A stretch of 32,000 nucleotides of DNA from Candidatus Saccharimonadota bacterium (GCA_020160975.1 JAIUPJ010000001.1:840001-872000), one strand, 5' to 3'. Counted from the first letter of the stretch, positions 464 to 27,524 are shown. Notes: a model not told the origin generated them from the sequence alone. Translations and numbers: made by a program.

Positions 464-539
464 GCGGGTATAGCTCAGTTGTTAGAGCGCGTCCTTGCCA
501 AGGACGAGGCCAGGGGTTAGAGTCCCCTTACCCGCACCA
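464..539 (+). tRNA. tRNA-Gly (anticodon GCC), CCA encoded
   Basis: The cloverleaf folds by eye. Acceptor GCGGGTA/TACCCGC, D stem GCTC/GAGC, anticodon stem CGTCC/GGACG with loop TTGCCAA, T stem AGGGG/CCCCT, A73, CCA; 76 nt. Confidence 0.93.
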
Positions 540-2076
540 AAATCGGACTTTCGAGGAAATTGTCGCCCGTTTGGGCGATTTTTTCTTTGGCCAAAGCGAA
601 GCGAGGCCAGATGTTTCCAGAGGGAGAAAAAGAAATTGCTGGCGCGCGCAGGCGCGCTTTTTTGTTTTCTAAAACGAGGTTAGAGCCAAAGATTTCGAGG
701 CAAAGCGACTTTTTGGCAAGTAAGTCGGTGCTTTTTGTTATCTCACAGATAGAAACGGCAGTTTCTATCCACTTTTTCAGCGGTTCGAGCCAAAGATTTT
801 GACCAAGCGTTAGCTTGGATAGTGTTTCTTCAAAACTCTTCTTTTGGCTCATAATCTCCGTCTTTTTGTCGGTGTATATTTCTCGATCAATGTCTTGGTC
901 GAGATAACTATCGAGTAAGCGTTGGAGCTTTGCGGTTAGTTGCGCGATGTTTGTCTGTAAATCTGACGTTTTCGATTGGTTTCGGCTTTGTTCATTGGCT
1001 TGGTCGGTTTCCATAAGCTCGCGCAACTTGTTCGCCCATGCCTTCGGCATGGCGTACTCTCGCAGTAGTTCGGTCAGTTGTGCGTCTAGCAACTCCTCGC
1101 GGATGTGTGGTTCAGGACAACGCGGAGTGTTCTTGCACTTTTTCGTGCAGTGGTAGTAGGTGTAGTGGTGAACATTACCATTTTTCTGCCGTTTAGTTTG
1201 GCTCTCGCCAGTAACCATCATGTTGCACGACCCGCAGCGGAGTAATCCGCAGAGTGGTTTTGGCTCGTTGGTTTTACTGACGCGCTTATGTCGACGTTTT
1301 TCAAACACCGCTTGCACCGTGTCAAAGAGTTTCTTTGACACAATTGGAGTGTGTTTACCCTCAAATACCTCGCCAGCGTAGCGAAAATGCCCGTAATAAA
1401 ACGGATTCGTGAGCATTTTGGCTACCTGGTCTTTTTTGAGTGGTTTGTTGCCTTTGGTTTTTATACCTTTACTGGCGAAAAAGTCGGCGATATCTTGTAG
1501 TCGCTGGTCGCCTCGCGCGTACAACTCAAACGCTTCAACGACAAGCGGAGCTTGTTGCTTGTCCACGATGACCGTCTTGGTGCGAACATCATTTATGTAG
1601 CCAAGCGGGGCACGACCAGGCATTTCGCCTCGCCGGACTTTTTGGCGCAAGCCCCGTTTGGTGTTTTCGGACAAATTGTCTACATAATATTTGCTCTGCC
1701 CAAACGCGATAGACAGCATGAACTTACCTTGCGATGTGTTCTCAAACCAAAAAGTCGGGAACTTCAGATTTGCGAGATGGGTTTGGTCGAGCAAATAGAC
1801 GATTTGTCCGCCGTCTATACTGTTTCGTGCCAGTCGGTCTGGATGCCACGCGATGATGCCATTGGCTTCGCCACGTTCAATTCGCTTTAGTAACTCGGCA
1901 AAGATAGGGCGACCAGGAGTTTTGGCGGATTTCTTCTCAATAAGTTCATCGACAATTTGCAAGTTTTCGTTTCGCGCATAAGCGCGAAGCTCGACTAACT
2001 GCGCCTCAATAGACAGGACTTGTTTGTCCTCTACGTCTGTACTTTTGCGCGTGTATAAGATATATTTTTCGTTCAT
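517..2076 (-). CDS. Large serine recombinase (integrase)
   Basis: 520 aa from ATG 2076, preceded by GGAGGTGAAA; the longer ORF to 2160 has no RBS. It has a resolvase-type catalytic N-terminus (YILYTRKSTDVEDKQ, WHPDRLARN), a Cys-rich zinc ribbon (CGLLRCGSC...YYHCTKKC) and a coiled-coil tail. The 3' end runs through IR1 and 23 nt into the antisense of tRNA-Gly. Confidence 0.9.
   Translation of the reverse strand: MNEKYILYTRKSTDVEDKQVLSIEAQLVELRAYARNENLQIVDELIEKKSAKTPGRPIFAELLKRIERGEANGIIAWHPDRLARNSIDGGQIVYLLDQTHLANLKFPTFWFENTSQGKFMLSIAFGQSKYYVDNLSENTKRGLRQKVRRGEMPGRAPLGYINDVRTKTVIVDKQQAPLVVEAFELYARGDQRLQDIADFFASKGIKTKGNKPLKKDQVAKMLTNPFYYGHFRYAGEVFEGKHTPIVSKKLFDTVQAVFEKRRHKRVSKTNEPKPLCGLLRCGSCNMMVTGESQTKRQKNGNVHHYTYYHCTKKCKNTPRCPEPHIREELLDAQLTELLREYAMPKAWANKLRELMETDQANEQSRNQSKTSDLQTNIAQLTAKLQRLLDSYLDQDIDREIYTDKKTEIMSQKKSFEETLSKLTLGQNLWLEPLKKWIETAVSICEITKSTDLLAKKSLCLEIFGSNLVLENKKARLRAPAISFSPSGNIWPRFALAKEKIAQTGDNFLESPILVRVRGL
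535..664. repeat. IR1 left copy (arm Y, starts with the CACCAA core)
   Basis: Reverse complement of 2219-2348, 129/130 identical (mismatch at 651 vs 2232), compared base by base. Confidence 0.95.
563..585 (+). terminator. Rho-independent terminator-like hairpin 3' of tRNA-Gly
   Basis: TCGCCC-GTTT-GGGCGA is followed by TTTTTT. It lies inside IR1 and inside the antisense tail of the recombinase ORF. A second GC hairpin plus T-run sits at about 643-667. Confidence 0.5.
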
Positions 2077-2218
2077 TTTCACCTCCAACTTAAATAGCCG
2101 CCTCGTTGCACACAATCCGGTATAACCAAATTGTACGAGACGGCTATCTAAGCCATACAAAAAGTCATACCGATTTGATTGTGTGCATTTCTATTTTACC
2201 AAAAACCGCCCATGGCGG

Positions 2219-2348
2219 CAAAAAAGCGCGCTTGCGCGCGCCAGCAATTTCTTTTTCTCCCTCTGGAAACATCTGGCCTCGCTTCGCTTTGGCCAAAGAA
2301 AAAATCGCCCAAACGGGCGACAATTTCCTCGAAAGTCCGATTTTGGTG
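2219..2348. repeat. IR1 right copy (arm Y inverted)
   Basis: Reverse complement of 535-664. It overlaps IR2-left by the 6-bp core TTGGTG (2343-2348). Confidence 0.95.
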
Positions 2349-2493
2349 GAGTTTTACGACTTTGCTCGAACCAATTTTGAGAATTGAAGCTCAGCCCCAA
2401 CGCCCGCGCGCCCCACCAGAAAAACCCTTTAACTGATTTTTCATTTCTCCCGCCGAGATTTCTTTTTAGTTGAAAAGGGTGTTTTCTGGTGGT
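2343..2493. repeat. IR2 left copy (arm X inverted)
   Basis: Exact reverse complement of 4606-4756 (151/151), checked segment by segment. Confidence 0.95.
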
Positions 2494-2499
2494 AGTATG

Positions 2500-4470
2500 T
2501 CAGGCTGCGACGCTTTTTTTACCTGTTAGCGCAAGATGAGCGAGATTGTCTGCCGTTCGCTGCAAGAGAGCTTGCTTCTCTGCGTACTCTCGTGGATCAA
2601 CCAAATACACTGCACCTTTGTAACCATCAGAGACAATTCGAAGCATTGGTTCATTGGCTCCACTTCGTCTTAGTTCGCGCAGAACATCACCGATCTTCAT
2701 CTCAACCCCAACATCGGGGAACAAGCAAATCAAGCCTTTCTCACGGCAAAGCATTTGTGCGTGTCCGCTGTAACCGTCGTTATTTACGATAATGACAGCT
2801 CCTTCACGCGGTAGCGCGTCTTCTCCCTGATGATTACCCATTACTCCTGCAATCGTAAACTTGTTTTCACTCCAAAAAATTACAACTCCTGCATCATCAC
2901 CATTGTGGTGATACTCGTCTAGCAGCTTGAGCGTGACATCGCCAACCCCAGTTGCTCGACACCAGTCGATCGGCTCTATATGTGAAGGAAACTCAACCTG
3001 TCTCCCACTACTTTCTAAAGATTTTTTGGGTAATGGTCGAACTTGCAAGATATTGTTGCCGTAGAACTCGACCTGAACGGGTTTGCCAAAAAACTGCTCT
3101 GCTAGTAAAGCGGCATGTACTGCGCTGTGGGTATTGCGCGTCGAATGACCGCCGATGCCATCAACAGTATGATCGGGTATGCTATGTAGTATTTTTGCGG
3201 ACTCAACACTTGTGAACAGATGTTCTGTGACTTTCGTTTTATCAAATAATAACCCGCCATGCTGGGTTTCAACAACCATCAAGTTTGGATGAGAGGCTTG
3301 GCTATCAACAGTACCGATAGGCGTTTTGTCTTCCCAGTGATCGCTAAGCGAATCGCAATATTGCTGGATTACTAATCCCATTTGCTCACCGTCTATACCA
3401 TGCTGCTTCCTATATTGAACTGCACGAGGACTATTGGTAGAGGCAAACACCTTTTCTATAGCCTGTCGAAAAGCTACCGGGTCACGCGGGTCTGCCGCTA
3501 CCGAATCATACACTCCCGCTCCTGTCATATCCTCTCCGTCTTCGGAACGTACTGCGCTGCTTCGTATCGCGACTACTCGCGGTATTTCTGCGATAGGATA
3601 CCCATCCTCATCGAACTTGCTCTCATTTGTAACGAGTTTTAGTGCTGCCGCATTTAGTTCAGCTAATTGCTCCTCAAACATGGCAGTATTATGTTGCCAT
3701 AGTTCGTACAGGCTAGTGTCTACAGGTATGAAAGGTGGAATATCTATCTCCTGTTGGTAATATTTTTCACCCGCAGTATTTCTTAACAACTCAAGATGTT
3801 CGGCAAACACCATTAAGTTAGCGGCTTTAGCTCCGTACGATTGACGTAGGCCCTCAAGTCGATCCATATCACCCCGTGGAGCTTCTAGTGCTCTTTGGGT
3901 AATTTGATGACGTGCTACAACCGCACGATACCCACTTTCGATAAACTTGGTTAGTGCCTCTGGAGCTTCCGTGTCATCTGAGCCAAGACGAATAACCCTT
4001 TCTGCTTTGTAGGGGATGCTGACCTGCTCATCCCGATAGTCAATCGGCGCATAAACTGTTCTCCCCTCAGGATATAACGGACTACGCACAAACCGTAATC
4101 TCATAGAAGCTGGCCACCTATCAAAGAACGAGCGAGCCGTTTCTAGGGCACTACCTGGTGGACTAGTATCAAAGTTTTCAGCTGTATTCTCAACATCGAT
4201 GTTAAAGGCCGTACGTCTTGCGATATCTGTGGCTCGTTCTAAGCGTGAACCCTTGGATGCGTATCTTAAAGACCGAAGTGCATCATAAAGTGTCTTTTCT
4301 TCTGGCGTTCTTTCTGGCCATTTATCGTCTAGCTCTTGGTGAAGTTCATCGGGAAAGTGCCCAGCTGCATGAAAAAGAAATCTACGAAGAGCTTGCTGGT
4401 TTCCTTCAGCAACTCCAGGCCAACGCGCAGATGCTTCATCAACTGAAGCAATGGGTTTTAACTCCGACAT
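2500..4470 (-). CDS. PEP-utilising-enzyme-like protein: novel N-terminal region, PPDK_N-type ATP-grasp and C-terminal phosphohistidine swivel domain, no TIM-barrel domain
   Basis: 656 aa. YGAKAANLMVF, VVAIRSSAVRSEDGEDMTGAGVYDS and AIEKVFASTNSPRAVQYR match the PEP/pyruvate-binding ATP-grasp domain. AVIIVNNDGYSGHAQMLCREKGLICLF matches the mobile His domain. The first ~200 aa have no motif I recognise. Confidence 0.75.
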   Translation of the reverse strand: MSELKPIASVDEASARWPGVAEGNQQALRRFLFHAAGHFPDELHQELDDKWPERTPEEKTLYDALRSLRYASKGSRLERATDIARRTAFNIDVENTAENFDTSPPGSALETARSFFDRWPASMRLRFVRSPLYPEGRTVYAPIDYRDEQVSIPYKAERVIRLGSDDTEAPEALTKFIESGYRAVVARHQITQRALEAPRGDMDRLEGLRQSYGAKAANLMVFAEHLELLRNTAGEKYYQQEIDIPPFIPVDTSLYELWQHNTAMFEEQLAELNAAALKLVTNESKFDEDGYPIAEIPRVVAIRSSAVRSEDGEDMTGAGVYDSVAADPRDPVAFRQAIEKVFASTNSPRAVQYRKQHGIDGEQMGLVIQQYCDSLSDHWEDKTPIGTVDSQASHPNLMVVETQHGGLLFDKTKVTEHLFTSVESAKILHSIPDHTVDGIGGHSTRNTHSAVHAALLAEQFFGKPVQVEFYGNNILQVRPLPKKSLESSGRQVEFPSHIEPIDWCRATGVGDVTLKLLDEYHHNGDDAGVVIFWSENKFTIAGVMGNHQGEDALPREGAVIIVNNDGYSGHAQMLCREKGLICLFPDVGVEMKIGDVLRELRRSGANEPMLRIVSDGYKGAVYLVDPREYAEKQALLQRTADNLAHLALTGKKSVAA

Positions 4471-4605
4471 AATTAACTAAACATAATACAATAAAAGCTC
4501 ATCGTTCGCAATGATTTGATAAATTCGTCGCGCTGGAGCGCATAGCGCGGCGGCTTTGCCGCCTGTGCGAAGCCCCAGCGCCTCTACTGCTTATGCAGTA
4601 GTCGA

Positions 4606-4756
4606 ACCACCAGAAAACACCCTTTTCAACTAAAAAGAAATCTCGGCGGGAGAAATGAAAAATCAGTTAAAGGGTTTTTCTGGTGGGGCGCGCGGGCGTT
4701 GGGGCTGAGCTTCAATTCTCAAAATTGGTTCGAGCAAAGTCGTAAAACTCCACCAA
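4606..4756. repeat. IR2 right copy (arm X, ends in CTCCACCAA)
   Basis: Exact reverse complement of 2343-2493. Homologous, at an estimated 75-80 percent by eye, to 27256-27434 in direct orientation. Confidence 0.95.
4701..4755 (+). pseudogene. tRNA-Ala-like remnant forming the end of arm X
   Basis: GGGGCTGAGCT..GGTTCGAGC..AACTCCACCA resembles the 5' end, T-loop and 3' end of bacterial tRNA-Ala (GGGGCTATAGCT..GGTTCGATCC..AGCTCCACCA, recalled from memory). It is only 55 nt and has no anticodon arm. Confidence 0.4.
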
Positions 4757-4780
4757 GATAATTTTGAATAATTACCCCTG

Positions 4781-4808
4781 TAAAACGTCGAGTATAATCG
4801 GCGTTTTT
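4781..4808 (+). terminator. Rho-independent terminator-like hairpin just outside element 1
   Basis: AAAACGTCGA / TCGGCGTTTT forms a 10-bp stem (one G-T pair) with a 6-nt loop, followed by a T-run. Confidence 0.5.
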
Positions 4809-5105
4809 TAGTTTGACACAAAAAAGACTCTAATTTTATTTAAATTGCTATATATCAGTTAGAAGTTCAAACTCGGTGAAGCTATTGGTTAGCAGCTCAC
4901 TTATGAGAGACCAGCGAGAATATGAAGTAGCAGAAATATTGCCTTAACTAATCTTCAATTTTGTATAGACACAACTCCGACGCCTTCTCTCTGCTACTTT
5001 CCGTTGCATGTCATGTAAATAAAATTTGCTAGCGATGTTAGGATAGATACTATAAGGTGTGTTAGGGCAGAAGGATCAAGACATCAACCACACGAAAGGG
5101 TGACT

Positions 5106-5669
5106 ATGACATTTCCACAAAAACTCAAAAAAATTCGTAGCGAGCTTGGTTTTTCGCAAGAGCAACTTGCGGAAAAATTAAGAGTTTCACGCCAAGCAGT
5201 AACAAAATGGGAATCGGGCGATGGCATGCCCGACACTCTTAACATGAAAGAACTCTCAAAACTAAGCGGTCACTCACTCGATTATCTACTGGGCAATAAC
5301 GCAGCGCACCAGCCAAAGTTAGGGTTTTTCGAATCGGTGAGTTACGCGTTTAGGCACTTTTCCGACTTTGAAGGGACGACGCGTCGGAGAGTATTTGGAT
5401 GGTATGCTGTGTTTTATGTGCTTGTACTGGCGATTTGTAGTGTATTTGACTTTATCAAGTTCAGCGAAGGCATCAGCCTGTCGCATGTTCTTAGTTCTGT
5501 CTTTGTCATCGCAACTCTTGTCCCATCGCTCTCAATTGGTGTGCGACGTCTTAGAGATGCGGGAGAGAACTGGCAACAGATGCTGTGGATACTGGTGCCG
5601 TTTTTCGGCTTCTTCTACCAATGCTACTTGTGGCTGCAACCTAGCATAGGAGAAAAGCGTCAGCACTAA
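5106..5669 (+). CDS. XRE-family HTH protein fused to a DUF805-like membrane domain
   Basis: ATG 5106 follows AAAGGG; the ORF track starts at GTG 5100. The HTH is LKKIRSELGFSQEQLAEKLRVSRQAVTKWESG. The C-terminal half has TM segments and the RRLRDAGENWQQMLWILVP motif typical of DUF805. Confidence 0.8.
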   Translation: MTFPQKLKKIRSELGFSQEQLAEKLRVSRQAVTKWESGDGMPDTLNMKELSKLSGHSLDYLLGNNAAHQPKLGFFESVSYAFRHFSDFEGTTRRRVFGWYAVFYVLVLAICSVFDFIKFSEGISLSHVLSSVFVIATLVPSLSIGVRRLRDAGENWQQMLWILVPFFGFFYQCYLWLQPSIGEKRQH

Positions 5670-5917
5670 ACTTCATAAACTAAATTCTGCCCGTCTAGTT
5701 AACGAAAATACTCCACCAACCATGTCGAGGCTCGCTAAGGCCTCCATGGCTTGGCGGGTTTCGCTTTTGATGATAAGTTCAGTGGTTTAATAAATCACTG
5801 GATAATATTAAATACTCTGCAATATACATTAGCTTAAAGCAGTCTATCTTCTCTGAATCAAAAGTTAGAAATATGTCTACTATGCGGCACCAAGAAATTA
5901 TCACATCATCACCCCTG

Positions 5918-5944
5918 TAAAACGTCGATTGAATCGACGTTTTA
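5918..5944. terminator. Perfect 13-bp-arm palindrome (bidirectional terminator or protein-binding site)
   Basis: TAAAACGTCGATT-G-AATCGACGTTTTA. It is homologous to the hairpin at 4781-4808. Confidence 0.4.
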
Positions 5945-6076
5945 CTTATTAGCCCAAAATATACTCTAATTTATTTTGCCTGATGTGAACCTAACTATGG
6001 GTCGACGCAACCGCTAGTTTCTTGTTAAATAGAGCTTTTAAGGATACTATCGCTAGTGTAAATCGAAAGGAACACT

Positions 6077-6490
6077 ATGAATATAGGCCAGAGAATATAT
6101 AAAATACGACAGCAGAAAAATATCACACAGGAACAACTAGCGAAAGATTTAGCTATCTCGCGCCAGGCAGTATCCAAATGGGAAAGCGGCAAGGCTATCC
6201 CTGATATCGAGAACCTCATGTATATAAGTAGCCTGTATGATGTGTCGCTCGACGAGCTTATTAAGGGAGATAATAAGGTTGGTCAAAAGATTATTGCTGA
6301 TGCAAGTGCAAAGAAATGGCATAAGCTTAGCATTTTATTTTTTGCTACACTTCTTGTTTATATTATGTGGTTTGGTTCAGCGCATGGCATATGGCAACTC
6401 GGTCTGGGAATCGCCACTCTTAGCATGATTATTATCGACACTCGAATACTCCTACGAAATCGCGTTTCGAAGCCTCTCAAAAGACAATAG
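6077..6490 (+). CDS. XRE-family HTH protein with C-terminal transmembrane segments
   Basis: RBS AAAGGAAC lies upstream. The HTH is IYKIRQQKNITQEQLAKDLAISRQAVSKWESG. Two hydrophobic segments follow (LSILFFATLLVYIMWF, LGLGIATLSMIIID). It is a paralog of the 5106-5669 N-terminus. Confidence 0.8.
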   Translation: MNIGQRIYKIRQQKNITQEQLAKDLAISRQAVSKWESGKAIPDIENLMYISSLYDVSLDELIKGDNKVGQKIIADASAKKWHKLSILFFATLLVYIMWFGSAHGIWQLGLGIATLSMIIIDTRILLRNRVSKPLKRQ

Positions 6491-6721: not shown

Positions 6722-7738
6722 TTACTCTTCACGCCTAGGTGCTATTGTTCTCTGAATATATTGAGATGAAGAAAAAATATTCCCTGCCATCGCCAGCCCT
6801 TTGACTAGTTTATCTGTGCCATACAAATTCCCATAGCTATCCCTCAGACTTACAGTCTGATCAATCCCACCTTCGCGGCAAAATTGTATGTGGCCATCCG
6901 CAGCAATGACGATGTTGCAAAGCCCATCCTGGCACGGATATTTTGGGCAGTCGCCACATAATTCTTTAGAATAATGTGCTGCAACCGAAGTATCTCTTAG
7001 TTCTATCTTCGTACCCTCAGGTGTGGTGAAGACTTTTTTCGCGTGGCCGACTCCGCCAACTGCATATTTAATGGAGGGCGGTCCATACTCACTTTCTAAG
7101 TCAAGAGCGATACTATCAAGCCTTACATAATTATCATCCGCAAAGTTACGTGATCCCGATAACGCATTATCGTAGCTACTTAGGTCAAACAATTTAATAT
7201 CGAGGCCATTCTGAACGCAAAATTCAATTATCGTGCTAACTTCGTCCTTATTGTACTCTCCGACAACGGTCTGAAGTCGTACTGGTACCTTGTCTTTTAT
7301 TTTTAGTATACCTTCAATTGTGTTTTCGAAGATGCTTTCGTTGCGGTGTGCGATACGCCGAAAGACCTCTGAGCGCAGCGTATCGAGGCTAATTTTTAAT
7401 TCATCAAAACCTGTCTCGACTATTCCGTCAAAATACCGTAAGATATTAGCCCCATTCGTGTTAAGTTTTGTATATCCAGGACCTTTTGGACGTCTATCAT
7501 TAACAAATCGCGCCAATTCAAACGTTGTTTGTGCGCTATTGTCTGTCAGAAGAGGTTCACCACCCGTAAAGCTAAAGTCTTGGAAGCCAACATCAATTGC
7601 TGCACTGAGCAGTGTCTTGAAATCATCAAGATTTAGCCTCGTTGATTGCATCTCAACACTATCGCCAGCTATCGGGCAATAATCACAACTTAAATTGCAC
7701 TGCTCAGTAACAGCCACACGCACAGAAGGCTTATCCAT
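6722..7738 (-). CDS. Radical SAM enzyme, MoaA-like
   Basis: VTEQCNLSCDYCP carries the Cx3Cx2C motif; FTGGEPLL and KLNTNG are also present. The C-terminal CGDCPKYPCQDGLCNIVIAADGHIQFC resembles the MoaA C-terminal Cys cluster region. Confidence 0.75.
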   Translation of the reverse strand: MDKPSVRVAVTEQCNLSCDYCPIAGDSVEMQSTRLNLDDFKTLLSAAIDVGFQDFSFTGGEPLLTDNSAQTTFELARFVNDRRPKGPGYTKLNTNGANILRYFDGIVETGFDELKISLDTLRSEVFRRIAHRNESIFENTIEGILKIKDKVPVRLQTVVGEYNKDEVSTIIEFCVQNGLDIKLFDLSSYDNALSGSRNFADDNYVRLDSIALDLESEYGPPSIKYAVGGVGHAKKVFTTPEGTKIELRDTSVAAHYSKELCGDCPKYPCQDGLCNIVIAADGHIQFCREGGIDQTVSLRDSYGNLYGTDKLVKGLAMAGNIFSSSQYIQRTIAPRREE

Positions 7739-7760
7739 AAAACATATTATAACATAAAAT

Positions 7761-7787
7761 TAGGCAATTATACGCTTAACACACCCA
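7761..7787. repeat. Solo IS1595-type terminal fragment
   Basis: TAGGCAATTATACGCTTAACACACCCA equals the reverse complement of 21696-21722 (26/27), which is the transposase-proximal end of the IS at 20682-21721. Confidence 0.6.
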
Positions 7788-7824
7788 ACTTTATAGAGAT
7801 AGCTAACAATGCCATGCTTTAGCC

Positions 7825-8004
7825 CTATTTATTCTTGGGCTTTTTGGGTGGCTTTGTCGCTTTGAGGAGCTTGTCTACTGCTTTATCAAACGTAGTGTTG
7901 AGCTTGAGCGGTTGTTCGTTTGTGCGAACTGGCTTTGCCTCGTACTCGTCGATTTGCTTTTGCAATTCCTCGGCCTCTTTTTTCGTTGTCTTAGTCTTCG
8001 CCAT
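7825..8004 (-). CDS. Small Lys/Glu-rich hypothetical protein (59 aa, below the ORF-track cutoff)
   Basis: My own translation is MAKTKTTKKEAEELQKQIDEYEAKPVRTNEQPLKLNTTFDKAVDKLLKATKPPKKPKNK. A TATAAT lies just upstream. No homology was recognised. Confidence 0.3.
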   Translation of the reverse strand: MAKTKTTKKEAEELQKQIDEYEAKPVRTNEQPLKLNTTFDKAVDKLLKATKPPKKPKNK

Positions 8005-8039: not shown

Positions 8040-10634
8040 TTAGTCGCCTAGAACTTTTGTTGCCTTTCGTTTTCTAGCTTGTCGCTTTGGCTTTGTTTTC
8101 GTAGGTTTTGGCTCTGGTTTCTTTTCGGCTGGCTTTTCTTCTGGCTCGACATGCTTTGTGGCAAATACGGCGCGTGAGTGTTCTATGACTGCTATTACTA
8201 CCTCATCACTACCAGCACTATCAAGCAGGAGTGTTTGGCCTGATAGCGGCTCTTGAGCATGGACAGCCGATAGCTTGGCGTAAAAGTTAAAGGCTGGCAA
8301 GTTGCTTATCTCGCCCTGTTCGATAAATGGGCTAAACAGCGGTAATAGCATACGTTCGTCTTGTGGGTTGCCAGTTCTAAAGCAAACCACCGTACCGACG
8401 TTAGCTAAAATCACATTGACCATTTGTTGATCGTCCTGCTGTGAGGTCGATTGTTCGGCAATCGTGAGGAACAAGCGGTATTTTCGTGCCTCGCTAAGTA
8501 GCTGCACAAACGACGGTGTAGCAAAGTTTTGGAACTCATCGACGTAGAGGTAGAAAGGGCGACGCTCCGACTGGTTCAGTCGGGCGCGTCGCAGACTTGC
8601 CAGTTGTAACTTGGCAAGTACGGCTATACCAAACAGCTCTGATACGTCTTCGCCGAGCAGTCCTTTTGAGAAGTTACAAATCAGTATCTTGCCACTGTTC
8701 ATAATGTCTTCAAAATCTATCGTGGACTTCTTCTGGCTTAAAATCAGGCGTGCCGAGGCGTTAGCGTTAAAGCGGCCAATCTTGGCGGTAATACCAGCCG
8801 CCATTTTGACTTTCTGCATGTCGCCAGCTTTACCGAGTTCGTTTTTCCAAAAGTCTATCAAGTCTTCATCTTCGAGTTTTTTGATAACTTCTTTGCGGAA
8901 CTTGTCATTTTGTAGCAGCTTGAGAATAGTAAACAAGGTTGCACCCTCGACGGTAAGCGCGGTATGTATAGCGTTACGTAGCACGTATTCGATACGGTGG
9001 CCGCCGCTATCGTCCTCTGAAAATAGCTTGCGAAATACCGATACAACGCTCTCTGTGATGATGTCTTTTTCGCGTAGCAGCTCGTTGCCTTTGAGGTCTG
9101 GTGTAAGTTCAAGCAAGTTTAACCCTATCGGGTACTCTAAGTCGTCGGGATTGAAGTAGACAACATCTTTGACGCGCTCTGGCGGCACATGACGCAAAAG
9201 CGTTTCGGCCATATCACCGTGAGGGTCGATAATGGCCACGCCTTTGCCGTTTTTCATATCTTGTACAATCTCGTATTGCAACATGGTTGTTTTGCCACTA
9301 CCTGTACCACCAATGACGTACTGGTGGCGTTCACGTTCGGCCTCGATAAGTCCGATAGGTGTAATCGTGTCATGGTGGTGGTTTTCGCCAATCACAACGG
9401 CCAATTCTTTGCCAGACTTTAGCGACACTGGCGCTGGCAGCGTTCGGCTAAGTGAAGTTATGAGGTTGTCGGTTTTGCTGACTTGGCTTGAGGGAAAGTG
9501 ATATAAGCTCGCAAGCTCCGACACACCCAAAACAACGGCAGATCGTCGCGTTAATGAGGGCAAGCGACGAATAGCCGCCCTGTGCCGCAGAGTATCGAGA
9601 AGTGGTATATGTGCCTTTGCCTTGAGCGACTGATACGGCGGCACACTATAACCGTCGAGTGCAGATTTTAGCGCCGATATGTGTGCTGCCACTTCGGGGC
9701 TTTTGACGAGAATACGCAAGTTTGTTTGAAATAGCGGCTGCGTAACTTTGTGGTGCATAGTTTCCATGAGTTCGAGTTCAAAAGCACTCAATACGCGCGA
9801 CGGACGGTCGCGTTTGGTAATATGCGCCTGTTGCTGTGTGCTGCGGTTCTTTGCGTAGTAGTAATCACGATAGCCAGAAGTCGTACCCATATATACCTCG
9901 CCAGCAAGGTCTGTTAGCCCTGATGAGGCTTTGCCAAACACATTAGCGATACGACCAAATACAGAAAGTTGTTTGCCACTGACTTGCTGTAAGATATTTT
10001 CGTTGCCTAAGATTTTATGCGACAGTATCTCGGCCTCGCGCAAACGTATAGGCGTAGCAACAATCTGTAAAGTTATCTGCTCGTCGTCGGCCAGTTTTGT
10101 CATAGCTCCTGTAACGTAACCGAGTGGGTCGTGCTGTTCAAATGCTGATGTGAGCGTAAGCGGCAGCACATAATGGCCGACTTCCTTAAACTCTATGACG
10201 CTATCTGCGCCTGTGTCCTCGCGCTCGACCTCTTTTACTTTAGAATCTGGTATGTACGATGTGATAGTTTTCTGTATGTTCTTTGAGCGGTCTTTTTCTA
10301 CTTGCAGCAAGTATCGTATGCCGTCCTTGCGCGTCGATACAATTTCAAAACTCATCACTGGCGAGCGGTCGAATAGCCGCTCTTTGAGTTGCCGTGCAGC
10401 ACGCGCACCGTGTATCACTGAAAACAGTTGCTCGGTGGCTTGTGGTGTCTTGGCGATACTGCTTGGCGGTGTAATTTCCAGCCACACCATATCACGGTGT
10501 AGTAAGTAGCGACGGTTGGCGATTGTTCGTATCAGCATGAATACAAACCACGCCACCACGAGCGAGCCGACGGCGAGCGCAGCTAAAGGCCAGAATTGTA
10601 AGGCGGTATCGGCAATAGCGGTGTTGGTGTCCAC
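8040..10634 (-). CDS. Type IV secretion coupling protein (VirD4/TraG/TcpA-like ATPase)
   Basis: 864 aa with GTG start after AGGAG. It has an N-terminal TM segment, Walker A VIGGTGSGKTT, Walker B FYLYVDEFQNF and a Lys/Pro-rich C-terminal tail. Confidence 0.85.
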   Translation of the reverse strand: MDTNTAIADTALQFWPLAALAVGSLVVAWFVFMLIRTIANRRYLLHRDMVWLEITPPSSIAKTPQATEQLFSVIHGARAARQLKERLFDRSPVMSFEIVSTRKDGIRYLLQVEKDRSKNIQKTITSYIPDSKVKEVEREDTGADSVIEFKEVGHYVLPLTLTSAFEQHDPLGYVTGAMTKLADDEQITLQIVATPIRLREAEILSHKILGNENILQQVSGKQLSVFGRIANVFGKASSGLTDLAGEVYMGTTSGYRDYYYAKNRSTQQQAHITKRDRPSRVLSAFELELMETMHHKVTQPLFQTNLRILVKSPEVAAHISALKSALDGYSVPPYQSLKAKAHIPLLDTLRHRAAIRRLPSLTRRSAVVLGVSELASLYHFPSSQVSKTDNLITSLSRTLPAPVSLKSGKELAVVIGENHHHDTITPIGLIEAERERHQYVIGGTGSGKTTMLQYEIVQDMKNGKGVAIIDPHGDMAETLLRHVPPERVKDVVYFNPDDLEYPIGLNLLELTPDLKGNELLREKDIITESVVSVFRKLFSEDDSGGHRIEYVLRNAIHTALTVEGATLFTILKLLQNDKFRKEVIKKLEDEDLIDFWKNELGKAGDMQKVKMAAGITAKIGRFNANASARLILSQKKSTIDFEDIMNSGKILICNFSKGLLGEDVSELFGIAVLAKLQLASLRRARLNQSERRPFYLYVDEFQNFATPSFVQLLSEARKYRLFLTIAEQSTSQQDDQQMVNVILANVGTVVCFRTGNPQDERMLLPLFSPFIEQGEISNLPAFNFYAKLSAVHAQEPLSGQTLLLDSAGSDEVVIAVIEHSRAVFATKHVEPEEKPAEKKPEPKPTKTKPKRQARKRKATKVLGD

Positions 10635-20681: not shown

Positions 20682-21721
20682 GGGTAATTATAGGTTGGGT
20701 ATCGGTAACTAAGTTTTAAGAACGCTTGTTAGTAAGGCTTTTGTACATCAGGCGCTTGCCGTTGATGTTATCAAACCAAGCCTCAAAACGCTCGCCGTCA
20801 GTCATGCCGCGTGTGTTCCAACGGAACGTGTACTCGTCGCAGTAGAGCTGCAAATGCTTTGCGCTTACGTGGTGGTAAATGCCGTCAATACCGCGCTTTA
20901 GGTGCGACCAAAAACTTTCTGCTGTGTTCGTACTAGCCATGCCGTTTACAAACTCTTTTGCGCCGTGATTAACGCTTGCGTGCTTGAAACCGATTTTAGG
21001 TAGGGTGCGATACGGCATGTGTTCGTCTGTGTAGATCGTAGCGTCAATGTCGATGTTCTTACGAGCTAGGGTCATAAGCGTGTTGCTGCCTGTGTCTTTA
21101 GTTGCGACTGCACGGAGCTTGCCGCCACGTTCAACCATACCGACAACTGGCGTTTTGCTATTCTTGCTGCCGTGTCCTTGAGCGCCTTTACCAGTTAGTT
21201 GCTTTAGTCGTTTGTGATAGTGCTTGTTGCTGTCCTTGCCGCCTATATACGCCTCGTCCATTTCAACCTCGCCAGTTAGCTTTTCAAAGCTGCCAGTTTC
21301 AAATACGTGGCGTATGCGCTGGAGCATAAACCATGCAGTTGCTTGACGTACCTTTATGAACTTAGAGAGCTGGATTGAAGATACGCCCTTTTTGATACTT
21401 GTACATAGATAGATTGCTAGTAGCCATTTACGCAGAGGTATTTTGCTGTCTTCAAAGATACTGCCGACACGGACGGTGAATTGCTGCCGACATGAGGCAC
21501 ATTTGAATAGCTTGCCAGCGTTTTTACCGCTCGTGTACTTATACGCCTTGCCGATAACGCCACATTGAGGGCAAGTTATCTCGTCTGGCCAACGACGCTC
21601 TTGTATGAAATCCCGACAAGACTGCTCGTCAGGGAATCTGTCTAGTAGTTCGATGAGGTTCATATCTTCCATACTTCCATTGTACACCTCTGTTGTGGGT
21701 GTGTCAAGCGTATAATTGCCT
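20682..21721. mobile_element. IS1595-family insertion sequence (ISXO2-like), approximate ends
   Basis: Imperfect terminal inverted repeats: GGGTAATTATAGGTTGGG (left) vs the reverse complement AGGCAATTATACGCTTGA (right). AAAAT flanks both ends (20677-20681 and 22-26 after 21700, i.e. 21722-21726). A single transposase gene lies inside. Confidence 0.5.
20716..21672 (-). CDS. IS1595-family transposase
   Basis: Start MEDMNLIELLDRFPDEQSCRDF. It has an N-terminal zinc ribbon (CPQCG...CASCRQQFT) and an ISXO2-like DDE region (EVEMDEAYIGGK...YTDEH...NTAESFWSHLKR). Confidence 0.88.
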   Translation of the reverse strand: MEDMNLIELLDRFPDEQSCRDFIQERRWPDEITCPQCGVIGKAYKYTSGKNAGKLFKCASCRQQFTVRVGSIFEDSKIPLRKWLLAIYLCTSIKKGVSSIQLSKFIKVRQATAWFMLQRIRHVFETGSFEKLTGEVEMDEAYIGGKDSNKHYHKRLKQLTGKGAQGHGSKNSKTPVVGMVERGGKLRAVATKDTGSNTLMTLARKNIDIDATIYTDEHMPYRTLPKIGFKHASVNHGAKEFVNGMASTNTAESFWSHLKRGIDGIYHHVSAKHLQLYCDEYTFRWNTRGMTDGERFEAWFDNINGKRLMYKSLTNKRS

Positions 21722-21968
21722 AAAATTATTACACACCTTATATAATGCGGCGGCCATTCGAGCGGGCCGTCCCCGACCCGACCCGCCGGGCCAATCACAT
21801 TCTTGCTCAAAATCGGTACGACTTAGTTGTATAAATCCACCATGCGATCATTCTTAGACGCACCGGCATCTTTTTTTGATTGGCTTGCACGTTGATGAAA
21901 GTGCTTATTTGTGGGGTGTAAACATAGTTTCTGGGTCGAGATAAACCCCAGAAGGAAATAGAACCTGT

Positions 21969-24591: not shown

Positions 24592-26250
24592 ATAACAAGC
24601 TCCCTGCTTTTAAGTGAAGCTGGGATGCGCGGTGCGCTTGATAGACTACCGTCAACCAACGCTCCAAAAAGTTTAAGTAAATTCTGTAGCTCCGCACCAA
24701 TTCGGAACTGAAACGGAAATTGTCGCCCTCTGGGGCGATTTTTTCGCTTGCGGCGCGTAGCGCCTGCCAGCGGTTTTTCAGGGGGGAGGTTAGAAATTGG
24801 TCGTCATTTATGACGACTTCTTTTTGTCGCATTTTGAGGTTCGACCCGAAGATTTCGAGTAATAGCGACTTTTTGGCTCGTAAATCATCACTCTTGGCGA
24901 CTTTACAGATAGAAACGGCAGTTTCTATCCATGTTTTCATCGGTTCGACCCAGGTCGAAACGCCCAGCGTTGCCTGCTCGATTTGTTCATGCAAAAGTTT
25001 CTTTTTGCCCAATATCTCCGCTCGTTTGTCTTGGTATAGTTCACGCTCTACGTCGCCGTCTAAGTAGCCGTCGAGTAGACGCGCCAGCTTGTCGGACAAC
25101 TGCGCGATAGCTTCTTTATCGTTTCCAGTAATACACTCAAAGTCGGCTTTTTCACTCATCTCGTCGTTACGTATCAGCTCGCGCAGTTTGTCCGCCCATG
25201 CCGTAGGCATGGCATACTTCTGTAATAATGCAGATAGTTGTTTGTCCAGCTCCTCAGCTCTGATGTGCGGCTCTCGACAGACAACCGTCTTACTCTTGCG
25301 AGTGCAGCGGTAATACACATAAGTATGTATGTTGCCGTTCTTTTGCCGCTTTACATGCTTTTCTGCGGTATACATCATGCCGCATGAACAATACACCAAG
25401 CCGCATAGCGGCATTGGGTCATTTGTTTTTGGGTGCGGCTTACCACGCCGCTCTAAAACAACTTGCACTTGGTCAAATAAGCGCTTCGAGATAATGCCTT
25501 TATGCTTGCCCTCATGGACTTCGCCAAGATAGCAAAAATGCCCATAATAAAAGGGATTAGCCAGCATGCGTTTGATACGATTTTTATGATATGGCTTTTT
25601 ACCTGTCGTCTTTTTGCCGTTTACTTTGCCGCTGCGCGTTTGTATGCCTTTGGCATGTAGGAAATCAGCGATCTCATCGAGTCGTTGATCGCCTTTGGCA
25701 TATAACTCAAAAACTTCGCGCACAATTGGGGCAGTTTTCTTGTCTACTTTGGCTGTTTTGGTGCGCAGATCGTTATAATAACCGACTGGCGCAACGCCTG
25801 GCATTTCGCCACGCCGCACTTTCTGCCGTAGTCCACGCTTAGTGTTTACCGACAAATTATCGACATACTGTTTAGATGAATTAAACTCATTTGCCAACAT
25901 ATACTTGCCTTGTGGTGTATTTTCAAACCAAAAATGTGGGAACTTCAAATCAAGCAATACATGCTAATCGAGCATGTAAATAATCTGTCCACTATCTATA
26001 CTATTGCGCGAGAGTCTGTCGGGTAGCCATGCCAGTATTCCGTTTGCCTCACCAGTCGCAATATCAGCCAGCATCTTGTTGAACTTTTTGCGCCCTGGCT
26101 TTTTCGCCGTTTGTTTTTCTACAATTATGCCCGCGATACGCAAGCCCGTACGCCCGGAAAACTCCTTTAGCTCAATTATCTGCGCCGCCACAGATAATAT
26201 TTGCTTGTCCTCTACATCGGTGGCTCGTATATCCTCGGTGATGCTATACT
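24554..26250 (-). pseudogene. Decayed large serine recombinase (paralog of 517-2076)
   Basis: It is colinear with recombinase 1 along its length. There is an in-frame TAG where recombinase 1 has Gln (YMLD*HVLLDLKFP vs YLLDQTHLANLKFP, about 25961-25963). The catalytic YTRKST is replaced by ITEDIRAT, and there is no start codon. Confidence 0.85.
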
Positions 26251-26256
26251 CGAACT

Positions 26257-27174
26257 ATGGCAAAACATCTTTCAATTCTTCTTATCGGTAGTGGCGTCAT
26301 CGGCTCCGTGTATGCTGGTCAGTTTACACTAGAAGGTCATGGCGTTTCGGTTCTGGCGTTTGGAGAGCGTGAACGTAAGCTCGCAAAAGATGGGATTCGA
26401 CTCAAAAACGTACAAACTGGTAAAACAGAGGTTGCTAAGGTACAAGTGGCGGGCACGTCATCAGGCCAGCAGTTCGATCTTGTTATCGTCGCGCTGCGCG
26501 CTAATCAACTGGCGAGTGCTTTCCCGGCATTACGGAAGTTAAAAGGCTCGCCGCATATCGTATTTTTTGGTAACAATCCTGACGGGCATAAGATAATTCC
26601 TAGCGACCTACCCGGTACTGTCCAACTCGCTTTTCCGGGCATCGGCGGCAGTATCGTTGATGATGTTGTTGAGTATATTCCGGTCGATCAGCAGCCAACC
26701 TCGCTCGAAGTATCCGACTCGCCGACAAGCCAAGTAATTCATGACGTCCTAAGCGCGCGAAGGTTTACACTACAAGACATCGCTGATATGGACGGCTGGC
26801 TAGCGCATCACACAGTATTTATCAGTTGTATATCGGTTGCTATTTTGCGCAAGAACGGCCTGCCGGCCGATCTTGCGAATGACCGCGAGGCGATGCGCAC
26901 GCTATGTCGTGCGATCGAGGAAGGCTTCGCTATGTTAAAGGCGCAACACCTTGGCGGTGCACCAAAGAACCTCGTCACACTCCATAGTCGCTGGCTCCGT
27001 CCGATTGCTGTAATGTACTGGAGCAAGCTACTACGCTCACCAAAAGGCGAACTTTATTTTGGTGCTCACGCTCGGCACGCTCCGGATGAAGTCTACCAGC
27101 TGGCTACGTGGACGCTAGCGCGCTGCCCAAAGAATTACGACGCACCACGCCTTAAACATCTATTAGAGCAGTGA
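26257..27174 (+). CDS. Ketopantoate-reductase (ApbA/PanE)-family NAD(P)-binding oxidoreductase
   Basis: It has an N-terminal Rossmann motif LLIGSGVIGSVYAG and the DLVIVALRANQL pattern. The substrate is not inferable. Confidence 0.6.
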   Translation: MAKHLSILLIGSGVIGSVYAGQFTLEGHGVSVLAFGERERKLAKDGIRLKNVQTGKTEVAKVQVAGTSSGQQFDLVIVALRANQLASAFPALRKLKGSPHIVFFGNNPDGHKIIPSDLPGTVQLAFPGIGGSIVDDVVEYIPVDQQPTSLEVSDSPTSQVIHDVLSARRFTLQDIADMDGWLAHHTVFISCISVAILRKNGLPADLANDREAMRTLCRAIEEGFAMLKAQHLGGAPKNLVTLHSRWLRPIAVMYWSKLLRSPKGELYFGAHARHAPDEVYQLATWTLARCPKNYDAPRLKHLLEQ

Positions 27175-27194
27175 TCAGACGTTTAGAGAGGGCG

Positions 27195-27366
27195 CAAAGC
27201 ACGTCGGCTTTAGCCGACTAGAGACACGCAGTCTCTGCCACAAGTGGCAAGGCGGACCACCAGAAACCCCCTTTCAACTAAAAAAGAAATTCCGCGGGGG
27301 AAATCTCAAAATAATGCAAAGGGTTTTTCTGGCGGGGCGAGCGGGCGTGAAACGCTCGCAGGTGTC
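27195..27366 (+). ncRNA. Candidate structured RNA / structured DNA module of arm X (copy 2; copy 1 at about 4530-4700)
   Basis: The module is a series of hairpins shared with copy 1, with compensatory changes: GTCGGC/GCCGAC vs GGCGGC/GCCGCC, and TTCC/GGAA vs TCTC/GAGA. It is intergenic, with a terminator downstream at 27437-27466. It belongs to no RNA family I recognise. Confidence 0.3.
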
Positions 27367-27433
27367 GGGGCTGAGCTTGCGCTTCAGCCCTCACACTCAA
27401 ATTCGGTTCGAACTTGGTCATAAAACTCCACCA
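27367..27433 (+). pseudogene. tRNA-Ala-like remnant at the end of arm X2
   Basis: GGGGCTGAGCTT...GGTTCGAAC...AAACTCCACCA. It is 67 nt and does not fold into a cloverleaf. Confidence 0.35.
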
Positions 27434-27436
27434 AAG

Positions 27437-27466
27437 TAAAAACCAGGCTCTGAGTCTGGTTTTTTA
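27437..27466 (+). terminator. Rho-independent terminator (possibly the original tRNA-Gly terminator)
   Basis: AAAAACCAGGCTC-TGA-GTCTGGTTTTTT: a 7-bp stem flanked by an A-run and a T-run, directly after the last CACCAA junction. Confidence 0.65.
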
Positions 27467-27524
27467 CTTTGACTATTATGATAGCTTGCCTCCATCAAAT
27501 AGTTGGCGTACAGTAGCATAAACA

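Follow-up and report, generated by a model that had tools for sequence, protein, structure and literature searches.

A tRNA-targeting serine-recombinase cassette of Patescibacteria with a complete inverted attP and an integrase gene that crosses the attachment core

The stretch of DNA analysed here, called the window, is 32,000 nucleotides long and comes from a Candidatus Saccharimonadota bacterium (GCA_020160975.1, JAIUPJ010000001.1:840001-872000). Close to its start, a cassette of 4.2 kb adjoins a tRNA-Gly gene and contains the gene (int) of a large serine recombinase (LSR), the integrase Int, together with one cargo gene and two pairs of long inverted repeats. In the first pair (IR1), 535-664 is the reverse complement of 2219-2348 at 129 of 130 positions, the single mismatch being G at 651 and A at 2232; in the second (IR2), 2343-2493 and 4606-4756 are exact reverse complements (151/151). 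Both pairs were obtained by repeat search and by direct comparison. The inner arms of IR1 and IR2 share 6 bp, TTGGTG at 2343-2348, and the same hexamer, read as CACCAA, stands at all three junctions of the element: 535-540, 2343-2348 (minus strand) and 4751-4756. Two unique segments are thereby delimited, of 1554 bp (665-2218) and 2112 bp (2494-4605), and the predicted excised circle measures 4216 bp, with two 281-bp inverted copies dividing one segment from the other. An earlier note on this DNA had given coordinates and counts for the repeats, the hexamer, the segments and the circle size, and all of them were reproduced. The features of the locus are as follows, with X and Y for the two arms of attP and X' and Y' for their inner copies.

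423-451: promoter-like site of tRNA-Gly (sequence prediction)
464-539, plus strand: tRNA-Gly(GCC), the integration target and B arm of attB (ARAGORN; Rfam RF00005, 71.7 bits)
520-2076, minus strand: int in its integrated form, encoding a 519-aa LSR whose last five codons (RVRGL) are antisense tRNA
535-540, plus strand: attL core S1, CACCAA, equal to tRNA positions 72-76 plus 1 (three-way identity of S1, S2 and S3)
535-664, plus strand: outer arm of IR1, core plus Y, the P' arm of attP (repeat search)
562-579 and 641-658, plus strand: two terminators behind tRNA-Gly, within Y
665-2218: int segment (I), unique sequence of 1554 bp delimited by the IR1 arms, with the int body, a promoter-like site and a third terminator
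2193-2221, minus strand: promoter-like site of int
2205-2219, minus strand: third terminator, in the int segment
2219-2348, plus strand: inner arm of IR1, Y' plus core, with the two terminators mirrored so that they face transcription from the cargo gene
2343-2348, minus strand: core S2 of the internal site; the minus strand reads X-CACCAA-Y, a complete inverted attP
2343-2493, plus strand: inner arm of IR2, core plus X', holding part of a structured element (SE)
2349-2387, plus strand: spare in-frame copy of the Int tail (EFYDFARTNFEN and stop), which extends the Int C-terminus encoded in Y'
2494-4605: cargo segment (C), the unique 2112 bp between the IR2 arms
2500-4470, minus strand: cargo gene, encoding a 656-aa protein with a PPDK_N-like ATP-grasp domain
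4483-4511, minus strand: promoter-like site of the cargo gene
4537-4712, plus strand: SE, about 190 nt, its 5' part (4538-4605) in the cargo segment and its 3' part in arm X
4606-4756, plus strand: outer arm of IR2, X plus core, the P arm of attP (repeat search)
4712-4750, minus strand: part of the IR2 outer arm that codes for the Int tail, joined to int in the excised circle
4751-4756, plus strand: attR core S3, followed by the flank, B' (identity of the three cores)
4782-4807, plus strand: terminator-like hairpin in the flank to the right of attR

The junction at the tRNA gene can be read as attL, the internal site as a complete attP in inverted orientation and the distal junction as attR. 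This is how the earlier note had read them, and the reading holds in the window as well as across the family of relatives described below. Positions 541-4750 are an integrated 4.2-kb cargo cassette mobilised by an LSR with the extreme 3' end of tRNA genes as its target, and we hold this identity and layout with high confidence. The inserted element rebuilds the 3' end of the tRNA (CACCA), and the minus strand of the outer IR1 arm encodes Int residues ~472-514. The hairpin at 4782-4807 is probably the original terminator of tRNA-Gly, displaced by the insertion; a second, decayed element of the same family in the window has an equivalent hairpin after its own attR, at 27440-27470.

Int has the Resolvase, Recombinase and Zn_ribbon_recom domains of Pfam (PF00239 at residues 6-151, E=1.7e-23; PF07508 and PF13408 in the C-terminal part), with the serine motif YTRKS (YxRxS) at residues 8-12. 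Residues 198-423 align to the C-terminal domain of the A118 integrase (4KIS/6DNW, E=4e-10), and an AlphaFold2 model places a long helix at 345-424. Its nearest neighbours in NCBIfam are CcrB (129.6 bits, cut-off 900), CcrA and XisF (102.9 bits, cut-off 375), every curated family cut-off being missed. Among the genes of the element, no candidate for a recombination directionality factor was recognised.

The reading of the internal site can be extended by a feature that the earlier note missed: the int open reading frame (ORF) crosses the attP core. It runs in frame through arm Y and the core into X', where it ends in a conserved tail of 12-13 residues, (L/F/I)Y-x3-R-T-(Y/H/F)-F-x2-N, and this tail follows the core in frame in essentially all elements. 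Full-length Int of the window thus has 526 residues and ends in ...ESPILV-EFYDFARTNFEN, whereas the integrated form ends in ...ESPILV-RVRGL, encoded by antisense tRNA codons; integrated relatives have tails such as GIEP or GFEP, which are the tRNA T-arm read backwards. The Tyr, Arg, Thr and Phe residues of the tail are invariant among 50 distinct sequences and vary only synonymously, Arg being encoded by five codons (CGA, AGA, CGT, CGC, CGG), Thr by three (ACC, ACT, ACA) and Tyr and Phe by two each. Because the residues stay fixed while the codons change, the tail is under constraint at the protein level. Integration through the attP beside int swaps the conserved tail for antisense-tRNA codons. 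One consequence of this course of the ORF is that the internal inverted site combines two things, a whole attP and an undamaged in-frame 3' end of int (2219-2387).

Two other candidates in these arms were rejected. The motif GGTTCGA near the end of X had been considered as a mimic of the tRNA T-arm, with a 4-bp offset like that between attP and attB half-sites; these bases are the Arg and Thr codons of the Int tail (CGA-ACC), and they vary synonymously, for which reason the idea was dropped. A 68-aa ORF at 2181-2387 (plus strand), publicly annotated as a 'hypothetical protein' (P0122/P0123, LCH21_04575), mirrors the Int C-terminus and tail within the internal attP, clusters with Int at 90% identity and is probably a shadow of the Int C-terminus, not a real gene. 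In relatives, the reading frame before Y' stays open for a median of only 18 codons and lacks a start codon in 12 of 46.

What could an integrated element gain from a second, inverted attP? The function we assign to the spare site is that of a store: the integrase of the cassette is clipped upon integration, and the inverted attP would preserve the 3' end of int. We put the probability of this reading at roughly 0.35-0.4.

The layout is not peculiar to the window. A scan of one genome per species returned 546 integrase relatives, and the best 80 loci were kept for layout analysis; Saccharibacteria are represented along with many other lineages of Patescibacteria. Self-comparison showed that int is bounded by inverted repeats of 110-147 bp, mostly 99-100% identical, in about 60 of the 80, so that the module of int, X and Y with its inverted attP, which the earlier note had proposed to look for in related genomes, is conserved there. 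IR1 reaches at least 95% identity in 46 loci and is present at lower identity in further ones, and in every case the int ORF extends with its 3' end into the downstream arm. In 26 loci, that is, wherever the upstream DNA sufficed, IR1 adjoins a second pair, of 150-290 bp, which surrounds 1.0-6.2 kb of unrelated cargo; in these 26 fully resolved loci, the core shared by IR1 and IR2 is 3-12 bp long. The canonical order in the family is the tRNA gene joined to Y, int pointing into the tRNA, the inverted attP (Y' then X'), cargo, SE, and X joined to the flank.

In about 55 loci the int ORF runs into a tRNA gene of the other strand, entering it at the 3' end, and the targets cover 17 amino-acid types (Gly, Leu, Asn, Ser, Met, Gln, Phe, Val, Arg, Tyr, Thr, His, Glu, Lys, Ala, Cys and Ile). 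Elements with 3-bp cores show three-way identity at tRNA positions about 72-74; therefore the crossover lies at the discriminator base, and the CCA end is supplied by the element. Sampled cargo is metabolic or housekeeping-like and includes glyoxalase, HD, methyltransferase, GDSL hydrolase and NUDIX proteins, queuosine salvage, a ProB-like kinase, prolyl-tRNA synthetase and inositol monophosphatase. Databases contain more than 8,000 homologues of Int, and neither the family nor its layout was found described in the literature.

Some relatives depart from the canonical order. On a 445-kb contig, L067:5900-9660 has int running into tRNA-Arg and an attR-like X end with SE, and a Y' copy upstream of int was not detected; it is a natural, 'simple' variant of the family. 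L038:3250-9518 consists of three consecutive repeat-bounded segments with sites in alternating orientation (pairs 3250-3460 and 4852-5062, 5059-5241 and 7530-7713, 7709-7835 and 9394-9518), a shufflon-like chain, suggesting that arrays can lengthen through the addition of cargo modules.

The earlier note had named evidence of a chimeric or fold-back assembly as one finding that would overturn its reading. Chance is excluded as the origin of the repeats by the length of the arms, 130 and 151 nt. Fold-back or amplification chimeras are a further candidate: multiple displacement amplification typically yields inverted duplications, and many assemblies break at these very repeats. The same arrangement was nevertheless found in an NCBI metagenome-assembled genome (L001), in ENA MEGAHIT contigs (L002, L007), in JGI contigs (L006, L008, L093) and in Logan assemblies. 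The Int of the window also lies on contigs of 971,550 and 972,972 bp, diverged genomes keep the layout by the dozen, some on contigs of 445-614 kb, and the junctions are precise at the discriminator position of the tRNA. An artefact is excluded by this agreement of independent assemblies, by the presence of the layout on 0.97-Mb contigs and by its conservation across species, and we leave it only a vanishing probability. Contigs L009-L012 and L095, which end within repeats or consist of the cargo segment plus partial arms, are as expected, because the real repeats are longer than the k-mer.

The same breakage recurs in the family: among loci L020-L092, about a third of the contigs stop 50-600 bp upstream of int, within the X' arm, and many Int homologues sit on contigs of 1.7-2.5 kb. 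The long inverted repeats of these elements are a systematic break point in short-read assemblies of metagenome-assembled genomes of the Candidate Phyla Radiation (CPR).

Several lines of evidence link the cassette to movement. The hybrid attachment sites share cores of 3-12 bp and the same Int is found fused to different tRNAs, as in LSR recombination between attP and attB. Near-identical Int bodies (P0010-P0021, 81-84% identical to the Int of the window) carry at least five different antisense-tRNA tails, and P0018 has the attP-type tail on the same body, so that one element type has been inserted into different tRNA genes sharing a ...CACCA 3' end; these sequences suggest a low target specificity. 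Across the 120 closest Int clusters, tails derived from tRNA occur in at least 72 and the attP-type tail in 10, all 10 on contigs of 1.7-3.6 kb.

A further contig bears on the window element itself. P0127 (526 aa, ending in EFYDFARTNFEN) is encoded on ENA contig k141_709999 (L104; 4,180 bp), which comes from an independent sample and runs from window position 2360 down to 535, joined at the core to 4756 down to 2397. It carries the junction of 4756 with 541 that the earlier note had predicted for a circle, and it is 36 nt short of the predicted circle (4,216 bp), the break lying in the X' repeat. X-Y junctions lie at both sides of its int segment, and they are backed by real k-mers because IR1 (130 bp) is shorter than k=141. 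The contig may derive from a circle or from a head-to-tail tandem copy, as both would give the same sequence. Relatives L103 and L107 are likewise of the circle type, and L105 can be explained by inversion of the int segment or by a circle in which the cargo is flipped. No match to the circle junction was obtained among viral contigs, and an empty attB was not found, the contigs with the neighbouring XRE gene being all occupied or broken at 4606. The 3' end of the tRNA gave no hit in a metagenome contig collection from which this organism is absent.

The orientation of the two segments bears directly on how the repeats are used. As counted in assemblies, the int segment faces the tRNA gene in about 55 of 56 loci; the one exception is L023, which has the order tRNA-Val (plus strand), Y and int (plus strand) and whose contig ends in Y'. 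For the cargo, the asymmetric 5' part of SE served as marker, and by this marker about 13 assemblies are canonical and 3 flipped: SE is at the attR side in the window and in L013, L019, L028, L031, L032, L035, L037, L039, L041, L055 and L079, and at the internal site in L017/L018 and L034. The direction of the cargo gene had also been tried as an indicator of flipping and was dropped: it is about 50:50 but says nothing about flipping, the cargoes being unrelated. In the population of the window element itself, 5 contigs have flipped cargo (L004 with three similar contigs, and L005) and about 11 are canonical (L093 with six more, L001, L006, L007 and L008). The expectation that either segment could flip agrees with these contigs, the cargo being assembled in inverted form in L004 and L005 and int in the relative L023. 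Cargo inversion leaves the linkage of promoter and gene unchanged. Inversion of the int segment, which holds the recombinase gene and, as in an inversion switch, is bounded by inverted recombination sites, would turn the C-terminus of the window Int from RVRGL to EFYDFARTNFEN, a state seen only in the relative L023 and possibly in the relative L105.

The earlier note had likened the circle to the yeast 2-micron plasmid, and in its strongest form this would mean that two equivalent inverted attP copies flip freely, possibly with amplification, and that either copy integrates. The geometry is real (two 281-bp copies, segments of 1554 and 2112 bp), both segments are occasionally inverted, and the repeats are homogenised as in the 2-micron plasmid or in plastid inverted repeats. 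Yet free flip-flop and equal use of the two attP copies both predict about 50:50, and the observed ratios, about 55:1 for int and about 13:3 for cargo, contradict them. The element has no gene for a replication origin protein, Rep or partition, and large serine recombinases such as those of phiC31, Bxb1 and A118 do not normally synapse attP with attP. As an account of free flipping or amplification, the likeness fails, and we judge this explanation improbable.

On the reading that we prefer, the same bias can be accommodated. The canonical arrangement would be a quiescent, clipped-integrase state, from which the spare inverted attP would allow an integrated element to regain a full-length integrase. 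Two routes can be envisaged, namely inversion of the int segment across IR1 and integration through the other attP, and either would place int before Y'-core-X' and so restore the tail. Copies whose Int is full-length would go on recombining and hence be transient, while the clipped arrangement would accumulate; their proposed transience would account for about 55 of 56 loci being clipped. Inversion of the cargo would be a by-product of the same repeats. If this is true, thousands of CPR genomes contain a recombinase whose activity and directionality are set by the arrangement of the DNA and not by a directionality factor. It would be a new, accessory-protein-free control of directionality in large serine integrases, enzymes that are major tools of genome engineering.

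Several observations weigh against this proposal and keep it tentative. A lower activity of the clipped Int and a role for the tail in it are both presumed from sequence, and AlphaFold2 modelling of full-length Int (P0004, alignment of 40 sequences) gave a mean predicted local distance difference test score of 72, with a low-confidence tail helix at 514-530 that does not illuminate the role of the tail. Circles of the window element exist although every integrated copy seen has a clipped Int, which means either that clipped Int excises or that rare flipped cells supply the activity; L104, moreover, fits a tandem copy as well as a circle. The model needs only about 45 bp of X', and IR2 measures 150-290 bp. 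The int of L067 is apparently intact without a Y' copy, so the spare site is not indispensable. Finally, IR2 in the window (151 bp) exceeds k=141 and typical reads, and cargo orientations from short reads may be arbitrary; the family-wide bias of 13:3 indicates that assemblers are not simply choosing at random.

Whatever the function of the spare site, its arms are actively kept alike. They are identical within elements and only 72-90% identical between elements, and they stay identical in elements whose integrases are 45-80% identical. Where identity has been lost, it has been lost in one pair at a time: IR2 is 100% and IR1, owing to a 31-bp indel, 77% identical in L041, IR1 is 100% and IR2 88% identical in L063, and in L047 and L050 IR1 is at least 98.5% and IR2 89-93% identical. 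IR1 and IR2 decay independently. Mismatches in imperfect pairs (L029, L078, L081, L047, L050, L038) are core-distal, the core-proximal 45-107 bp being identical, and in L032 one arm has a different hairpin plus T-run in place of its distal terminator hairpin, such that both arms keep a terminator. Of the two explanations offered in the earlier note for near-perfect identity, a very recent origin does not survive and ongoing homogenisation does, given identity maintained at 45-80% Int identity and decay that is independent and core-distal. Gene conversion is required, because site-specific exchange at the core only swaps arms. The polarity suggests either that conversion initiates at the core or that selection acts on the core-proximal part together with homologous recombination. 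Identity extending outward from the core probably reflects core-polarised gene conversion through RecA repair, possibly seeded by cleavage by the recombinase.

Conversion of this kind could also maintain a site that does nothing. On this alternative, the spare attP is a functionless inherited duplicate, at most a platform on which related elements swap cargo by double crossover in the X arms. Arm X and SE are indeed 72-90% identical between elements that have unrelated cargo and different tRNAs, the direction of the cargo gene relative to int is about 50:50, as if cassettes entered either way, L067 manages without Y', and L038 has built a three-segment chain. Against these observations stands the retention of the layout in nearly all of about 60 informative loci, over phylum-level divergence and 45-80% Int identity, which argues for selection. 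A neutral duplicate would be deleted in streamlined genomes, and the decayed second element of the window has lost it. We consider a functionless duplicate unlikely.

The terminators and the core-proximal identity are also what would be expected if the internal attP acted in cis as a binding or regulatory site, be it a decoy for Int or architectural site that replaces a directionality factor in attL x attR excision, or an insulator that shields int from transcription of the cargo. These tiny elements encode no obvious directionality factor, both IR1 arms keep inward terminators even when diverged (L032), and the putative recombinase-binding parts next to the core are the best conserved. However, an insulator or decoy could do without 100% identity over 130-290 bp and without a second Int tail in frame. 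Excision by serine recombinases of the Ccr and TnpX types requires no directionality factor, and we know of no case in which an att site itself takes that role. A cis-acting role is accordingly one that we doubt, and the storage of an intact int 3' end is still the reading we prefer.

SE is complete only at the attR end, with a partial copy in the inner arm of IR2, and is conserved among elements with unrelated cargo and different tRNA targets. Its DNA fold has z = -6.3, and RNAalifold on an alignment of 13 sequences gives 52 pairs, 26 of them with compensatory double changes. A comparison of G:U with A:C pairs, tried as an indicator of strand, gives no decisive difference (20 vs 12). Searches of Rfam with SE and the repeat arms returned no family, only sub-threshold chance matches. 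In the circle, SE starts right after the stop codon of full-length int, on the opposite strand. It could be a structure at the 3' end of an mRNA, an antisense RNA, an origin of transfer (oriT) or single-strand origin, or an accessory site, and it offers a new covariation-supported structured element for study.

An origin-like SE enters a further alternative, in which the element acts as a folded single strand: X-core-Y would pair with Y'-core'-X' as a 281-bp attP stem, open to the recombinase ahead of second-strand synthesis in a transferred or replicative strand, and SE would be an oriT or single-strand origin. Folded substrates are known from attP(+) of CTXphi and attC of integrons. The geometry permits such a stem, with int and cargo as loops, a type IV secretion cluster adjoins the element, the covarying stems of SE resemble those of single-strand origins, and a strand-specific intermediate would fix the orientation of the segments. 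Nevertheless, a serine recombinase cutting the stem-loop would leave hairpin-capped chromosome ends, which only replication and a second attL x attR event could rescue, int cannot be transcribed from a single-stranded loop, and the element has no gene for a relaxase or rolling-circle Rep. The scheme is entirely speculative, and we regard it as very improbable.

Other parts of the window record related events. The second element of the family, at 24692-27435, is decayed. Its core CCGCACCAA (24692-24700) lies beside a mere fragment of a tRNA 3' end and is followed by a Y-like arm, an int pseudogene on the minus strand that has lost its N-terminus and contains an internal stop, a PanE-like ORF (26257-27174), a complete second copy of SE (27191-27378, plus strand) and an X end with CACCAA at 27396-27435, then a terminator. 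No inverted repeats are left in it; an orthologue in L014 still has IR1.

The flank of attR (4751-4841) recurs 1137 bp downstream, at 5888-5977, with 72-80% identity. This repeat begins exactly at (G)CACCAAGA and includes a palindromic, terminator-like sequence, AAAACGTCGA...TCGNCGTTTT, and each copy precedes a gene of the XRE family of helix-turn-helix proteins (5100-5669, with DUF805, and 6077-6490). It may have arisen by segmental duplication, or it may be what is left of an earlier insertion into the same tRNA gene. Directly downstream of the cassette and the XRE genes lies the type IV secretion cluster (genes 8040-~21700), which encodes a VirD4/TraG-like protein of 864 aa, a CHAP hydrolase and VirB4-like, TraC-like, PrgI-like and TrbL-like proteins. 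It is bracketed by a 34-nt inverted repeat (91% identical, 7754-7787 and 21696-21729) with a TATAAT-like sequence, which may be a pair of promoters.

At the level of the family, these are very abundant and apparently undescribed cassettes that carry metabolic genes to tRNA loci in the reduced patescibacterial genomes, and they bear on how symbiotic Patescibacteria acquire functions. An ecological parallel is found in the tycheposons of Prochlorococcus, integrase cassettes that target tRNA genes, carry metabolic cargo in streamlined genomes and occur in circular and tandem forms (bioRxiv 10.1101/2020.12.28.424599). The window family shares with them the tRNA targeting and the kind of cargo (ProRS, ProB, queuosine salvage, NUDIX, IMPase). 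Tycheposons, in contrast, measure 10-20 kb, have tyrosine recombinases in 910 of 937 cases as well as replication modules, and use integrases each specific for one of seven tRNAs (bioRxiv 10.1101/2020.12.28.424599); an internal inverted attachment site, as in the window family, is not reported for them.

Among elements moved by serine recombinases, those of the A118/phiC31 type and the Ccr elements of the staphylococcal cassette chromosome (SCC) have the same Resolvase, Recombinase and zinc-ribbon domains, and the window Int has an A118-like coiled coil. They also share with the window element a short common core, hybrid attL and attR sites and a circular intermediate. SCC is a small cargo cassette at the 3' end of a conserved gene (rlmH), as the window element is at a tRNA gene. 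Unlike the named LSR families, the window family has an Int that falls under the curated cut-offs and targets the 3' ends of many tRNA genes; the attP core lies within its int ORF, an inverted attP is kept in full, and attR is accompanied by SE. None of these distinguishing features was found described in the literature on A118, phiC31, Bxb1, SPbeta, TnpX and Ccr elements. An LSR integrative element combining a self-clipping serine integrase, an inverted spare attP, core-polarised homogenisation and SE presents unreported features.

Invertible systems provide a second comparison. As in the Gin, Cin and Min segments and the R64 shufflon, sites alternate in the window family and inversion would change the 3' end that is fused to a constant ORF. 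In the window element, however, the invertible segment contains the body of the gene, and the alternative 3' ends, antisense tRNA or the X' tail, flank it. Those systems use sites of 26-31 bp, the window family repeats of 130-290 bp; Gin, Cin and Min are small invertases with an enhancer and R64 uses the tyrosine recombinase Rci, whereas the window enzyme is an LSR; and inversion in the window family is apparently infrequent by comparison. With the 2-micron plasmid and its FLP/FRT system, the window circle shares two unique segments parted by long identical inverted repeats that contain the recombinase target, one of the segments holding the recombinase gene. The differences are that the window element, whose genes are int and one PPDK_N-like gene, lacks functions for replication and partition, uses a serine instead of a tyrosine recombinase, has isomers far from equimolar and is mainly integrated.

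A mechanistic precedent comes from archaea. In 'suicidal' integrases of the SSV type, the att site lies inside the integrase ORF, so that integration disrupts the gene and activity is lost (PMC8371274), and excision needs an intact copy of the gene (PMC8371274; PMC7253208); a review calls the phenomenon exclusive to archaea (PMC8371274). Like int of the window, the integrases of SSV1, pTN3 and pT26-2 have the recombination core inside their ORF. The SSV-type enzymes are tyrosine recombinases whose gene is split into two large halves, whereas the window Int is a bacterial serine recombinase that loses only its last 12-13 residues, and the spare inverted 3' end sets the window element further apart. 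It is a possibility, and one we hold with considerable doubt, that this element is a serine counterpart of the archaeal 'suicidal' integrases with a built-in undo, in which the clipping of Int would fix the element at its site until a rare inversion, or insertion by way of the alternative attP, armed it again.

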